Assembly (NCBI RefSeq): GCF_011045215.1 | Contig: NZ_CP049201.1 | Reading direction: 5' to 3' (one strand) | From: Escherichia coli | GTDB taxonomy: Bacteria > Pseudomonadota > Gammaproteobacteria > Enterobacterales > Enterobacteriaceae | DNA: 64,000 bases | Part shown: positions 3,376 to 12,891 of the stretch, one piece after another | Position numbering within the stretch: the stretch's first letter is position 1 | Layout: every line of letters starts with the position of its first letter | Translations under genes and position numbers: made by a program | Notes under the pieces: generated by a model | Databases searched by the model: none | Seen by the model: only the letters and a program-made list of their open reading frames with translations | Told to the model about the DNA's origin: nothing

Positions 3376-4794
3376 ATGGTTACTATCAATACGGAATCTG
3401 CTTTAACGCCACGTTCTTTGCGGGATACGCGGCGTATGAATATGTTTGTTTCGGTAGCTGCTGCGGTCGCAGGATTGTTATTTGGTCTTGATATCGGCGT
3501 AATCGCCGGAGCGTTGCCGTTCATTACCGATCACTTTGTGCTGACCAGTCGTTTGCAGGAATGGGTGGTTAGTAGCATGATGCTCGGCGCAGCAATTGGT
3601 GCGCTGTTTAATGGTTGGCTGTCGTTCCGCCTGGGTCGTAAATACAGCCTGATGGCGGGGGCCATCCTGTTTGTACTCGGTTCTATAGGGTCCGCTTTTG
3701 CGACCAGCGTAGAGATGTTAATCGCCGCTCGTGTGGTGCTGGGCATTGCTGTCGGGATCGCGTCTTACACCGCTCCTCTGTATCTTTCTGAAATGGCAAG
3801 TGAAAACGTTCGCGGTAAGATGATCAGTATGTACCAGTTGATGGTCACACTCGGCATCGTGCTGGCGTTTTTATCCGATACAGCGTTCAGTTATAGCGGT
3901 AACTGGCGCGCAATGTTGGGGGTTCTTGCTTTACCAGCAGTCCTGCTGATTATTCTGGTGGTCTTCCTGCCAAATAGCCCGCGCTGGCTGGCGGAAAAGG
4001 GGCGTCATATTGAGGCGGAAGAAGTGTTGCGTATGCTGCGCGATACGTCGGAAAAAGCGCGAGAAGAACTCAACGAAATTCGTGAAAGCCTGAAGTTAAA
4101 ACAAGGCGGTTGGGCACTGTTTAAGATCAACCGTAACGTCCGTCGTGCTGTGTTTCTCGGTATGTTGTTGCAGGCGATGCAGCAGTTTACCGGTATGAAC
4201 ATCATCATGTACTATGCGCCGCGTATCTTCAAAATGGCGGGCTTTACGACCACAGAACAACAGATGATTGCGACTCTGGTCGTGGGACTGACCTTTATGT
4301 TCGCGACCTTCATTGCGGTCTTTACGGTAGATAAAGCAGGTCGTAAACCGGCTCTGAAAATTGGTTTCAGCGTGATGGCGTTAGGCACTCTGGTGCTGGG
4401 CTATTGCCTGATGCAGTTTGATAACGGTACGGCTTCCAGTGGCTTGTCCTGGCTCTCTGTTGGCATGACGATGATGTGTATTGCCGGTTATGCGATGAGC
4501 GCCGCGCCAGTGGTGTGGATCCTGTGCTCTGAAATTCAGCCGCTGAAATGCCGCGATTTCGGTATTACCTGTTCGACGACGACAAACTGGGTGTCGAATA
4601 TGATTATCGGCGCGACCTTCCTGACACTGCTTGATAGCATTGGCGCTGCCGGTACGTTCTGGCTCTACACTGCGCTGAACATTGCGTTTGTGGGCATCAC
4701 TTTCTGGCTCATTCCGGAAACCAAAAATGTCACGCTGGAACATATCGAACGCAAACTGATGGCAGGCGAGAAGTTGAGAAATATCGGCGTCTGA
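3376..4794 (+). CDS. araE: arabinose:H+ symporter (MFS sugar porter)
   Basis: ORF track frame 3247..4794; ATG matching the known N-terminus [14 protein letters not shown] gives 472 aa. Confidence 0.95.
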
Positions 4795-4800
4795 TTTCAC

Positions 4801-4833
4801 GGGCCGGATGTGCTGTACATCCGGCCCTTTTTT
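4801..4833 (+). terminator. rho-independent terminator after araE
   Basis: Hairpin GGGCCGGATGT...ACATCCGGCCC followed by TTTTTT. Confidence 0.7.
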
Positions 4834-4922
4834 CGTTAATAGAGATCGGGCACCTGGCCGTTGAGGCGTTTGTCTCGTTCCTTATTCAGCCTTGTTGCGG
4901 TAACACACATCAGGAGAGAGGA

Positions 4923-5615
4923 ATGAAAACAATTGGTTTGCTGGGAGGAATGAGCTGGGAATCCACCATTCCTTACTATCGTCTGATAAATGAAGGCATT
5001 AAACAGCGGCTTGGTGGGCTTCACTCTGCGCAAGTGCTGCTACATAGCGTCGATTTTCATGAAATAGAAGAGTGCCAGCGTCGCGGGGAATGGGATAAAA
5101 CCGGGGACATTCTGGCTGAGGCGGCGCTTGGCTTACAGCGGGCGGGCGCAGAAGGTATTGTGTTATGTACCAATACGATGCATAAAGTGGCGGATGCCAT
5201 TGAGTCACGTTGCACTCTGCCTTTCTTACACATTGCGGATGCCACCGGACGTGCAATTACCGGGGCCGGAATGACTCGTGTGGCGCTGCTGGGTACGCGT
5301 TACACCATGGAACAGGATTTTTATCGCGGGCGGCTGACGGAACAATTTTCCATCAATTGTCTTATTCCTGAAGCGGATGAACGGGCGAAAATTAATCAGA
5401 TTATTTTTGAAGAACTGTGTCTGGGGCAATTTACCGAAGCGTCACGCGCTTATTATGCGCAAGTGATTGCTCGCCTTGCAGAACAGGGCGCACAGGGCGT
5501 CATTTTTGGCTGCACAGAAATTGGTTTACTGGTGCCAGAAGAGCGCAGTGTTTTGCCTGTGTTTGATACTGCGGCGATCCATGCCGAGGATGCTGTCGCT
5601 TTTATGCTGTCGTAG
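4923..5615 (+). CDS. ygeA: Asp/Glu-family amino acid racemase
   Basis: 230-aa ORF, length and synteny match YgeA. Confidence 0.9.
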
Positions 5616-6537
5616 CTGACGACAAAATAGCGTCAAGAGAAGTGACCAGTTTCGGTAACCCCGCTTGTAAATGCTCACTAAACGCCTGCACCAGCGCTGA
5701 TGACGGGCGGTGCAGGGGGCGGATCAGGCTGACGGTGAACGGAACCGCAATACTGAACCGCCGCACCACTAAACCGCTTGCCGCATAATCCAGTGCGGTG
5801 AGCGGGTTAACCACCGAAACACCTACCCCCGCCCGTACCATTGCGCAGACTGACGCGGCGCTGTGGGTTTCTACGATCATGCGTCGTTTAACCTGATGTT
5901 CAGTAAATAGCTGATCCAGCAACTGGCGATAGCTGTCAGTACGGGAAAGGCTGATGTAGTTCTCACCCTGAAAATCATCCGGCGTTAATACCTTTTTTAC
6001 CGCCAGCGGATGACCCGGAGGTAACACACACACTTCATCTAAAGAGAGTAATTCGGTACGTTCTGTTCCCGCAGGCGTATGGAGCGTCTCAGTGAACCCT
6101 AAATCATGACGCTGGGCCGAGAGCCACTCTTCAAGTAGCGGTGATTCCTGGGGCACGATATTTAAGCTGACATCGGGATAACGTGCCAGAAAGGGTTGCA
6201 GGAGCTGCGGTAAAAAAGATTGCGAAAAGACTGGCAGGCAGGCAATAGACAGTTCTCCCTGGCGAAACTCGCGCAGACTTTCTGCGGCGCTGACAATGCG
6301 ATCCAGTCCGTACCAGGATCGTTGCACTTCTTCAAACAGACGCAGTCCTTGCACGGTAGGATGTAATCGTCCACGTACGCGCTCAAACAATTTTAGCCCG
6401 ATCACCTTCTCAAAGCGCGCCAGTTCGCGGCTGACGGTTGGCTGTGAGGTGTGTAGCAGGTGTGCCGCCTCAGTCAGGCTTCCGGCGGTCATTACCGCAT
6501 GAAAAATTTCAATATGACGTAAGTTAACGGCGGCCAT
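5602..6537 (-). CDS. lysR: LysR transcriptional activator of lysA
   Basis: ORF trimmed to [15 protein letters not shown] (311 aa); HTH LysR N-terminus; divergent from lysA. Confidence 0.95.
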
Positions 6538-6659
6538 TAGCACTCTCTCGCAATCCGGTAATCCATATCATTTTTGCATAGACTCGACATAAATCGATAT
6601 TTTTTATTCTTTTTATGATGTGGCGTAATCATAAAAAAAGCACTTATCTGGAGTTTGCT

Positions 6660-7922
6660 ATGCCACATTCACTGTTCAGCACCGATACCGATCTCACTGC
6701 CGAAAATCTGCTGCGTTTGCCCGCTGAATTTGGCTGCCCGGTGTGGGTCTACGATGCGCAAATTATTCGTCGGCAGATTGCAGCGCTGAAACAGTTTGAT
6801 GTGGTGCGCTTTGCACAGAAAGCCTGTTCCAATATTCATATTTTGCGCTTAATGCGTGAGCAGGGCGTGAAAGTGGATTCCGTCTCGTTAGGCGAAATAG
6901 AGCGTGCGTTGGCGGCGGGTTACAATCCGCAAACGCACCCCGATGATATTGTTTTTACGGCAGATGTTATCGATCAGGCGACGCTTGAACGCGTCAGTGA
7001 ATTGCAAATTCCGGTGAATGCGGGTTCTGTTGATATGCTCGACCAACTGGGCCAGGTTTCGCCAGGGCATCGGGTATGGCTGCGCGTTAACCCGGGGTTT
7101 GGTCACGGACATAGCCAAAAAACCAATACCGGTGGCGAAAACAGCAAGCACGGTATCTGGTACACCGATCTGCCCGCCGCACTGGACGTGATACAACGTC
7201 ATCATCTGCAGCTGGTCGGCATTCACATGCACATTGGTTCTGGCGTTGATTATGCCCATCTGGAACAGGTGTGTGGTGCGATGGTGCGTCAGGTCCTCGA
7301 ATTCGGTCAGGATTTACAGGCTATTTCTGCAGGCGGTGGGCTTTCTGTTCCTTATCAACAGGGTGAAGAGGCGGTTGATACCGAACATTATTATGGTCTG
7401 TGGAATGCCGCGCGTGAGCAAATTGCCCGCCATTTGGGCCACCCTGTGAAACTGGAAATTGAACCGGGTCGCTTCCTGGTAGCGCAGTCTGGCGTATTAA
7501 TTACTCAGGTGCGGAGCGTCAAACAAATGGGTAGCCGCCACTTTGTGCTTGTTGATGCCGGGTTCAACGATCTGATGCGCCCGGCAATGTACGGTAGTTA
7601 CCACCATATCAGTGCTCTGGCAGCTGATGGTCGTTCTCTGGAACACGCGCCAACGGTGGAAACCGTCGTCGCCGGGCCGTTATGTGAATCGGGCGATGTC
7701 TTTACCCAGCAGGAAGGGGGAAATGTCGAAACCCGCGCCTTGCCGGAAGTGAAGGCGGGTGATTATCTGGTACTGCATGATACAGGGGCATATGGCGCAT
7801 CAATGTCATCCAACTACAACAGCCGTCCACTGTTACCAGAAGTTCTGTTTGATAATGGTCAGGCGCGGTTGATTCGCCGTCGCCAGACCATCGAAGAATT
7901 ACTGGCGCTGGAATTGCTTTAA
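6660..7922 (+). CDS. lysA: diaminopimelate decarboxylase
   Basis: ORF trimmed to MPHSLFSTDTDLTAENL (420 aa). Confidence 0.95.
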   Translation: MPHSLFSTDTDLTAENLLRLPAEFGCPVWVYDAQIIRRQIAALKQFDVVRFAQKACSNIHILRLMREQGVKVDSVSLGEIERALAAGYNPQTHPDDIVFTADVIDQATLERVSELQIPVNAGSVDMLDQLGQVSPGHRVWLRVNPGFGHGHSQKTNTGGENSKHGIWYTDLPAALDVIQRHHLQLVGIHMHIGSGVDYAHLEQVCGAMVRQVLEFGQDLQAISAGGGLSVPYQQGEEAVDTEHYYGLWNAAREQIARHLGHPVKLEIEPGRFLVAQSGVLITQVRSVKQMGSRHFVLVDAGFNDLMRPAMYGSYHHISALAADGRSLEHAPTVETVVAGPLCESGDVFTQQEGGNVETRALPEVKAGDYLVLHDTGAYGASMSSNYNSRPLLPEVLFDNGQARLIRRRQTIEELLALELL

Positions 7923-7928
7923 CTGCGG

Positions 7929-8960
7929 TTAGTCGCTGGTTGCATGATGACTTGCCTCCAGCGACGGAGTTGACACTGAATGGCGACGTACCAGCGTCGG
8001 ACTAAAGACATTAGTGATTTCCGGGAGAGGGCGATTATCCGCCAGCGCCAAAGCCAGTTCGGCAGCCTGGGTCGCCATCGTCACGATTGGATAACGCACG
8101 GTGGTCAGGCGCGGTCGCACATAGCGTGACACCAGCACATCATCAAAGCCAATTAACGAAATTTCGCCCGGTACATCAATACCATTATCATTGAGAACGC
8201 CCATCGCACCTGCCGCCATTGAATCGTTATAACAGGCTACCGCAGTGAAATTTCTTCCTCGTCCCAAAAGCTCGGTCATTGCCTGTTCGCCGCCGCTTTC
8301 GTCTGGTTCGCCAAATGTCACCAGCCGATCATTGGCCGGAATACCACTTTCAGCAAGGGCATCGTAATACCCTTGCAGACGATCTTCGGCGTCAGAAATA
8401 GAGTGGTTAGAGCACAGATAACCAATGCGGGTATGACCTTGCTGAATTAAATGACGCGTTGCCAGCCAGGCACCGTAACGATCGTCCAGAGCAATACAAC
8501 GGTTTTCAAAGCCAGGCAGGATACGGTTGATCAGCACCATACCGGGCATTTGTTTCATTAATGAGGCTAAATCGGCATCCGGGATCATTTTGGCATGGAC
8601 GACCAACGCAGCACAGCGATGGCGGATCAGTTGCTCAATAGCCTGACGCTCTTTTTGTTCGTTGTGGTAACCGTTGCCAATCAATAAGAAATTACCGGTG
8701 TGATAAGCCACCTGTTCGACCGCTTTCACCATTGCACCGAAAAACGGATCGGAAACATCACCAACGACCAGACCGACCGTTTCAGTGGTCTGCTGCGCCA
8801 GCGCACGGGCGTTGGCGTTCGGGTGATAGCTAAGAGACTCCATTGCACTATGCACAGCCAGCCGGGAAGCTTCGCTGGCTTTGGGTGAATTATTAATGAC
8901 GCGGGAAACGGTGGCGACTGAAACGCCTGCCAGTCGGGCTACATCCTTTATGGTCGCCAT
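7929..8960 (-). CDS. galR: galactose repressor (LacI/GalR family)
   Basis: 343-aa ORF, N-terminal HTH MATIKDVARLAGVSVATVSRV. Confidence 0.95.
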   Translation of the reverse strand: MATIKDVARLAGVSVATVSRVINNSPKASEASRLAVHSAMESLSYHPNANARALAQQTTETVGLVVGDVSDPFFGAMVKAVEQVAYHTGNFLLIGNGYHNEQKERQAIEQLIRHRCAALVVHAKMIPDADLASLMKQMPGMVLINRILPGFENRCIALDDRYGAWLATRHLIQQGHTRIGYLCSNHSISDAEDRLQGYYDALAESGIPANDRLVTFGEPDESGGEQAMTELLGRGRNFTAVACYNDSMAAGAMGVLNDNGIDVPGEISLIGFDDVLVSRYVRPRLTTVRYPIVTMATQAAELALALADNRPLPEITNVFSPTLVRRHSVSTPSLEASHHATSD

Positions 8961-9173
8961 GAAAATACCTTAGTGGGTAAACGCTTACATTCTTTCAGTG
9001 TTACGGAAAACGCCCGTTGGTTCAAGGGGTGGCGTGTTTTCATCGTGGGAATGTGAGCCAAACGCAAATAAGTAAGACAAAAAAAGAGATTGCAAACCTT
9101 TGGTTACACTTTGCGAAACGCTGTTGCGATTGACCGCTGGTGGCGTTTGGCTTCAGGTTGCTAAAGTGGTGAT

Positions 9174-9256
9174 CCCAGAGGTATTGATAGGTGAAGTCAA
9201 CTTCGGGTTGAGCACATGAATTACACCAGCCTGCGCAGATGCGCAGGTTTTTTTTT
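9174..9256 (+). ncRNA. omrB: OmrB small RNA (RygB)
   Basis: Begins CCCAGAGGTATTGATAGGTGAAG, ends in hairpin CCTGCGCAGATGCGCAGG plus T9; matches my recollection of OmrB; located between galR and aas. Confidence 0.8.
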
Positions 9257-9370
9257 GCCGGTCATCAATCTGTAACAGTAACCGACAATTTACACACCTC
9301 GTTGCATTTCCCTTCATTCCTTTGCGTTTTCTCGCTGGCGAAGAGTCGTCGTGCAGACCACAATCAAGAT

Positions 9371-9458
9371 CCCAGAGGTATTGATTGGTGAGATTATTCG
9401 GTACGCTCTTCGTACCCTGTCTCTTGCACCAACCTGCGCGGATGCGCAGGTTTTTTTT
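9371..9458 (+). ncRNA. omrA: OmrA small RNA (RygA)
   Basis: Begins CCCAGAGGTATTGATTGGTGAGATTATTCGG, ends in hairpin CCTGCGCGGATGCGCAGG plus T8; paralogue of omrB about 200 bp downstream. Confidence 0.8.
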
Positions 9459-9524
9459 CGCACCTAATTTACTGTCGCTCGCGTTCTTTATCTCGTGTAA
9501 TCTCCCTCCATTCGCTTTTACTGA

Positions 9525-12891
<3,367 letters not shown>

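Follow-up and report, generated by a model that had tools for sequence, protein, structure and literature searches.

The convergent genes ygeA and lysR of Escherichia coli share their last 14 nucleotides, and this arrangement is very probably an ordinary, annotated tail-to-tail overlap of two genuine genes that results from stop-codon drift and not from selection on the shared sequence. We analyzed the junction in a window of 64,000 nucleotides (contig NZ_CP049201.1 of assembly GCF_011045215.1), to which positions refer unless K-12 coordinates are stated. The arrangement as such is known: the overlap is annotated and already appears in transcriptome surveys, and the overlapping transcription and a Rho-dependent end are likewise contained in public annotation or published data sets.

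The two genes lie on opposite strands and have their 3' nucleotides from 5602 to 5615 in common (Table 1). The 3' end of ygeA reads GCT TTT ATG CTG TCG TAG, with the TAG stop codon at 5613-5615, and that of lysR reads GCT ACG ACA GCA TAA, where TAA is the reverse complement of the TTA at 5602-5604. Within the shared segment the YgeA sense strand is read as (TT)T ATG CTG TCG TAG, corresponding to F-M-L-S-stop, and the antisense strand gives the LysR residues A-T-T-A followed by the stop. The computed phase of the overlap is (123:132), meaning that the ygeA codon positions 1/2/3 are placed opposite lysR positions 1/3/2. At its other end, the lysR open reading frame (5602..6543) reaches a GTG at 6543; the K-12 annotation maps the ATG start codon to 6537.

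Table 1. Features at and around the ygeA/lysR junction (window positions).
Feature	Position	Strand	Basis or remark
Strong intrinsic terminator after araE; 12-bp stem with 8 GC pairs, T-run	4801..4834	+	terminator scan
ygeA coding sequence; amino acid racemase YgeA, 230 aa	4923..5615	+	ORF list, K-12/RefSeq annotation
3' untranslated RNA of lysR, running antisense to ygeA over its final ~134 nt	5468..5601	-	C-rich, G-poor; ends at the Rho region
Segment shared by ygeA and lysR, 14 nt, TTATGCTGTCGTAG	5602..5615	both	direct reading
lysR coding sequence; LysR, activator of lysA, 311 aa from the annotated ATG	5602..6537	-	ORF list, K-12 annotation
Hairpin TGTCGT-agctg-ACGACA across the ygeA stop, 6 bp	5608..5624	both	direct reading
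lysR codon TCG (Ser; + strand CGA)	5620-5622	-	TAG (+ strand CTA) in E. albertii and the 94%-identity Escherichia clade
Candidate rut-like Rho loading stretch for ygeA transcripts	5756..5833	+	prediction; antisense to lysR codons

Direct reading, the list of open reading frames and the K-12 annotation concur on the 14-nt convergent overlap that a preliminary description of this DNA had pointed out, and both stop codons, when compared with K-12 and RefSeq, proved to be the same there. In MG1655, lysR is annotated at 2979021..2979956 (+) and ygeA at 2979943..2980635 (-) with an identical 14-nt overlap, and the RefSeq PGAP annotation of other strains contains the same overlap. Between 4900 and 6600, 16 of 1701 ungapped positions differ between the window and K-12, the overlap itself being unchanged. 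The 81-nt junction is present once in each of 5423 of the 5426 complete E. coli genomes, with an identity of at least 99% in 4331 of them.

A frameshift or mis-called stop in either gene, which the preliminary description had named as the observation that would speak against the overlap, was looked for and not found. An annotation or sequencing artefact of this kind, in which one stop would be mis-called through a frameshift or a wrong frame and the genes would lack a true overlap, has next to no chance of being the explanation; we came across no point in its support and rejected it. YgeA matches the NCBIfam equivalog NF007569 over residues 1-230 of 230 and is identical over 230 residues to the crystallised YgeA (PDB 5hqt/5ell), and LysR matches the equivalog NF008239 over residues 1-308 of 309. 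Together with the orthologues of both proteins across the Enterobacteriaceae, these matches identify both frames as genuine full-length genes. The artefact reading is further contradicted by the occurrence of the same stops in K-12 and in nearly all complete E. coli genomes, as well as by the recurrence of the 14-nt layout in six further species named below.

Variation at the locus within the species was also noted. The best complete E. coli genome is 99.6% identical to the window over the 1.7 kb from 4900 to 6600, and that set of genomes contains no identical copy; in 42 of the 5423 genomes less than 80% of this 1.7-kb query is covered. An IS4 insertion splits ygeA at about window position 5490-5501 in some E. 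coli (NZ_CP022164.1, NZ_CP173554.1), with flanks that repeat GCACAGGGCGT, and in one such strain lysR is frameshifted as well.

The junction was then compared across the Enterobacteriaceae in a survey with one genome per species. The survey comprised 80 ygeA loci, Salmonella and Klebsiella not being among them, and the comparison set consists of the 29 non-E. coli Enterobacteriaceae loci in which lysR is convergent to ygeA. Overlap lengths were determined by walking from the alignment start to the first in-frame stop. The two genes overlap by 4 nt (TTAA or CTAA) in seven species (Phytobacter, Pseudescherichia and several 'Enterobacter' spp.), by 6 nt in two (E. asburiae and Enterobacter MGH 24), by 14 nt in six (Citrobacter FP75, Kluyvera, two Pluralibacter, Superficieibacter and an Enterobacter MAG), by 29 nt in two (C. 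youngae and C. werkmanii), and by 23, 27 and 38 nt in one each (Enterobacteriaceae RIT691, E. cloacae and Siccibacter, respectively). A gap of 2-4 nt is found in three (one MAG, E. albertii and a 94%-identity Escherichia clade), a gap of 62-110 nt with additional DNA between the genes in two (Pseudocitrobacter), a gap of 500 nt in one MAG, and a gap of about 1370 nt containing an inserted transporter-like gene in three (two Cedecea and 'Enterobacter' Ag1). Hence the genes abut tightly, with an overlap or a gap of no more than 4 nt, in 23 of the 29 other species, and all three overlap phases are seen among these loci.

The alignment of the protein termini relates the length of the overlap to the YgeA sequence. 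The C-terminus of YgeA reads (D/A/E)FML(S/D) in nearly all species, and the LysR tails vary in both length and sequence. In every species with an overlap of 14, 23 or 29 nt, the lysR stop corresponds to the TTA contained in the conserved ygeA codons TTT-ATG (Phe-Met), so that, with the LysR tail in that frame, it is the YgeA sequence that sets how long the overlap is. In E. albertii and the 94%-identity Escherichia clade, a stop replaces the serine codon at 5620-5622 (Table 1), LysR ends six residues sooner with AIL, and a 4-nt gap takes the place of the overlap. A 14-nt overlap had been considered for these two and was ruled out, the tblastn alignment having run through the in-frame stop. Since the LysR proteins of Citrobacter, Kluyvera and Pluralibacter have no stop at the equivalent codon, the long form of LysR looks ancestral in this group. 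The truncation in E. albertii and its sister clade suggests that the overlapping LysR tail is dispensable.

Two of the loci with separated genes have features of their own. In Cedecea sulfonylureivorans (locus L018, 3905-5075), a transporter-like open reading frame of 388 aa is inserted between ygeA and lysR; its stop at 5069-5071 lies 1 nt from the lysR stop at 5073-5075, making a near-overlapping convergent junction with a new partner. The ygeA-lysR spacers of Pseudocitrobacter (L013 3694-3755 and L015 3694-3803) contain GC-rich palindromes, e.g. GCCGGATAAGGCG…GCCGCCATCCGGC, which by eye are REP-like. The Pseudocitrobacter loci show that inserted DNA is able to break the overlap.

Overlaps of this type are not rare in E. 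coli, for which 58 convergent overlapping pairs were counted in one study (PMC2174442) and 75 convergent overlaps among 663 overlapping adjacent pairs in another (PMC4161906). Of the convergent overlaps that measure 5 nt or longer, 49% are in phase (123:132), more than in any other phase (PMC2174442). Convergent overlaps arise mainly by mutation of the stop codon (PMC2174442), and the stop-codon-mutation model fits them in both studies (PMC2174442, PMC4161906). Being short and in phase (123:132), the ygeA/lysR overlap is like those described by Lillo & Krakauer 2007 (PMC2174442) and Huvet & Stumpf 2014 (PMC4161906), and we see no substantial difference between this pair and the known convergent overlapping pairs. 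The shifts of stop codons that the model predicts are displayed by the relatives in both genes: ygeA is longer by 5-10 codons in Citrobacter youngae/werkmanii, E. cloacae and Siccibacter, and lysR is shorter in E. albertii. As one of the 58-75 E. coli cases, the overlap is in no excess over chance and ordinary evolution.

Its origin can be pictured as follows. Conservation of the YgeA C-terminus (…D/A-F-M-L-S) would keep the codons TTT-ATG fixed, and on the opposite strand in phase (123:132) these codons would supply a TAA. A lysR allele whose poorly conserved C-terminal tail comes to lie in that frame would stop there, giving the 14-nt overlap, and the final LysR residues would be dispensable. 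The exact overlap would then be a labile by-product of stop-codon drift in the LysR tail, opposite the conserved FML of YgeA.

The lack of a spacer raises the question of how transcription of the two genes ends. The preliminary description had stated that there is no room for a terminator, and for intrinsic terminators this stands: a consensus scan of 4700-6800 detected none after the ygeA or the lysR stop on the gene's own strand, and neither gene has one because no spacer is available. The araE terminator (Table 1) is the only strong intrinsic terminator in this region. The statement does not hold for termination by Rho, which ends lysR-strand transcription inside ygeA, as set out below. The hairpin across the ygeA stop is preceded by a T-run and followed by an A-run, and therefore the stem lacks a trailing U-tract in both transcripts. 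When the folding of both strands was compared with that of shuffled sequences, the z-scores of -1.2 and -1.9 were not significant. No consensus structure at the junction was found among nine species that either have the 14-nt layout or are close relatives, the hairpin being unconserved. As a terminator, the hairpin was rejected on account of the missing U-tract, the insignificant z-scores and the lack of conservation, and we regard it as a chance feature. An Rfam scan of 4000-11000 (E<=1) returned no family near the junction. Elsewhere in the scanned region, RF00079 matches on the + strand correspond to OmrB (9174-9255) and OmrA (9371-9458), with 86 and 97 bits, downstream of galR as in K-12.

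Messenger RNAs that read antisense into a convergent neighbour have reportedly been found by Peters and colleagues in 2012 to be terminated by Rho. For the lysR strand, such an end is documented by a comparison of DirectRNA-seq data in the presence and absence of bicyclomycin (Adams et al. 2021, PMC7815308 supplementary file 2), where a Rho region annotated as 'antisense ygeA' has its peak at K-12 position 2980090 (+), with 73/17 upstream/downstream reads without and 146/129 with bicyclomycin (Rho score 3.79, p=1.8e-6). In K-12 the + strand is that of lysR, and 2980090 corresponds to window position 5468, about 134 nt beyond the lysR stop. Readthrough increases when bicyclomycin inhibits Rho, so in these data the lysR-strand end behaves as a Rho-dependent terminator. 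This strand is sparsely covered, with 73 reads over the 800 nt that precede the termination site (PMC7815308). From +1 to +130 past the lysR stop, the C/G ratio in 78-nt windows is 1.4-1.85, which corresponds to about the 90th-96th percentile of the whole window (median 1.0, 95th percentile 1.73, 99th percentile 2.25), and the C-rich, G-poor tract matches what is expected of a Rho loading region.

On the ygeA strand, a 78-nt stretch at +141..+218 past the ygeA stop has a C/G ratio of 2.0 and 15 YC dimers, placing it in the 95th-99th percentile. From this rut-like tract, Rho termination of ygeA transcripts is predicted to occur a few hundred nucleotides into the lysR antisense. The supplement of PMC7815308 contains no 'antisense lysR' entry and no ygeA-strand 3' end was found there; its text likewise has no Term-seq 3' end annotated to lysR/ygeA at the junction. 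In its lysR strand, the pair is thus like the Rho-dependent ends antisense into a convergent neighbour reported by Adams et al. 2021 (PMC7815308), with the difference that experimental support covers the lysR strand and the ygeA strand is predicted. Past each stop the RNA would be untranslated and antisense to the partner gene, and Rho would end transcription, for the lysR strand as in the published data and for the ygeA strand, we infer, by way of the rut-like stretch 140-220 nt past the stop.

A second convergent pair in the window resembles this layout. The genes lysA (+, stop 7922) and galR (-, stop 7929) are separated by a 6-nt spacer without a terminator (window 7920-7931). A Rho region at K-12 2978071 (+), annotated as 'antisense lysA' (Adams et al., PMC7815308), corresponds to about window position 7487, so that galR transcription extends about 440 nt into lysA, resembling that of lysR into ygeA. 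The galR-lysA pair is also contained in the ExcludonFinder list (PMC12288877).

Bidirectional terminators driven by collision have reportedly been described between convergent genes by Ju and colleagues in 2019. Applied to this junction, the hairpin at 5608-5624 would pause the converging polymerases, and head-on and rear-end collisions would set both 3' ends independently of Rho. The pair resembles collision terminators in being convergent and without canonical intrinsic terminators; the genes have no spacer between them, a 6-bp hairpin spans the ygeA stop, and the model concerns sites without canonical intrinsic-terminator features (preprint 10.1101/2022.10.23.513370). However, the sites of Wang et al. 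(10.1101/2022.10.23.513370) are Rho-independent, have sharp overlapping 3' ends between the genes and require a stem-loop, whereas the mapped lysR-strand end is bicyclomycin-sensitive and lies about 134 nt past the junction, inside the partner gene. The hairpin is weak by its z-scores and is unconserved even in Escherichia relatives, no Term-seq 3' end annotated to lysR/ygeA marks the junction in the supplement text of PMC7815308, and the model performs poorly for lowly expressed pairs (10.1101/2022.10.23.513370). We therefore consider collision termination extremely improbable here, and retain Rho-dependent termination as the account of the lysR-strand end.

Transcription of ygeA likely stems mainly from readthrough past the araE terminator, as a simple scan finds no promoter-like site between this terminator and ygeA. 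In Salmonella, about 50% of ygeA is cotranscribed with araE, and the gene responds to arabinose (PMC8341724). The Salmonella RNA-seq tables, from a species whose junction is outside our survey, give a 7-10 fold change of ygeA with arabinose and do not list lysR (PMC8341724). From the arabinose response and the cotranscription with araE, it follows that antisense input into lysR could rise on arabinose. A Term-seq 3' end with high coverage at K-12 2980766 (-) corresponds to window position 4792, within the araE stop codon (PMC7815308 supplementary file 3). It is located 9 nt upstream of the araE hairpin (4801-4827) and not past the T-run, for which processing or a coordinate convention is a possible reason.

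The concept of the excludon is said to have been set out by Sesto and colleagues in 2013. In E. coli MG1655, lysR-ygeA is one of 165 core convergent excludons present in at least 50% of 58 transcriptomes (ExcludonFinder, PMC12288877 Table 1), and like the other convergent excludons of this list it has overlapping 3' transcript regions of opposite-strand neighbours, as borne out by published data (PMC12288877, PMC7815308). The assertion of the preliminary description that the two mRNAs have complementary 3' ends is upheld by the overlap of the coding sequences, by this listing and by the Rho region about 134 nt past the lysR stop. With Rho terminating lysR-strand transcription within ygeA, complementarity is not confined to the 14 nt of the coding overlap but extends over well over 100 nt, and would come to at least about 150 nt in the 3' regions of the ygeA and lysR mRNAs. 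An excludon call is automatic when two genes with overlapping coding sequences are both expressed, and is thus uninformative with respect to regulation.

Antisense interference, which the preliminary description had suggested, finds weak support as a regulatory function of this pair. In a functional convergent excludon, arabinose- and CRP-induced araE-ygeA transcription would run antisense into lysR and lysR transcription into ygeA, and the resulting mutual antagonism, exerted through RNA polymerase collisions and cleavage of the duplex by RNase III, would link sugar status to control of the lysine pathway. We regard this as unlikely. The core listing speaks for reproducible overlapping transcription, lysR-strand RNA does reach about 134 nt into ygeA, the genes abut closely in most Enterobacteriaceae examined, and in Salmonella ygeA is arabinose-responsive and partly cotranscribed with araE, so that by way of the arabinose-inducible araE promoter the antisense input into lysR could be strong in some conditions. 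A tested precedent exists in the mscL-arfA pair of E. coli (PMC10070815), for which antisense regulation and the involvement of RNase III were shown experimentally; in lysR-ygeA, opposing expression and RNase III cleavage are hypothetical, and the transcript overlap follows trivially from the overlap of the coding sequences. In the portion of the p19 dsRNA supplement (PMC7373196) that was read, neither ygeA nor lysR occurs, and control genes are missing from it too. Against a regulatory role, the call from RNA-seq is trivial, few reads cover the lysR strand (73 per 800 nt), and the Salmonella differential-expression tables that show ygeA changing do not list lysR. The overlap is missing in E. 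albertii, and in Pseudocitrobacter, Cedecea and others the two genes are kept apart by inserted DNA or an entire inserted gene.

The tight abutment in 23 of 29 other species could reflect selection for transcript overlap instead of mere deletion bias. In its fullest form, this would mean that the abutment itself was selected because readthrough from araE through ygeA, driven by arabinose/CRP, restrains lysR by a conditional antisense effect whose reach is set by Rho, and thereby also restrains lysA and the synthesis of lysine. We hold this to be very unlikely; if true, the pair would be a regulated excludon through which a sugar regulon is tied to an amino-acid pathway. Most likely, the transcript overlap of these two weakly transcribed genes is tolerated noise with little or no regulatory consequence.

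Modest added interest would arise only if arabinose-induced ygeA transcription modulated lysR. Otherwise, the ygeA/lysR junction serves as a textbook example of the origin and drift of convergent overlaps, and it also illustrates how Rho clears transcripts where there is no space for an intrinsic terminator.
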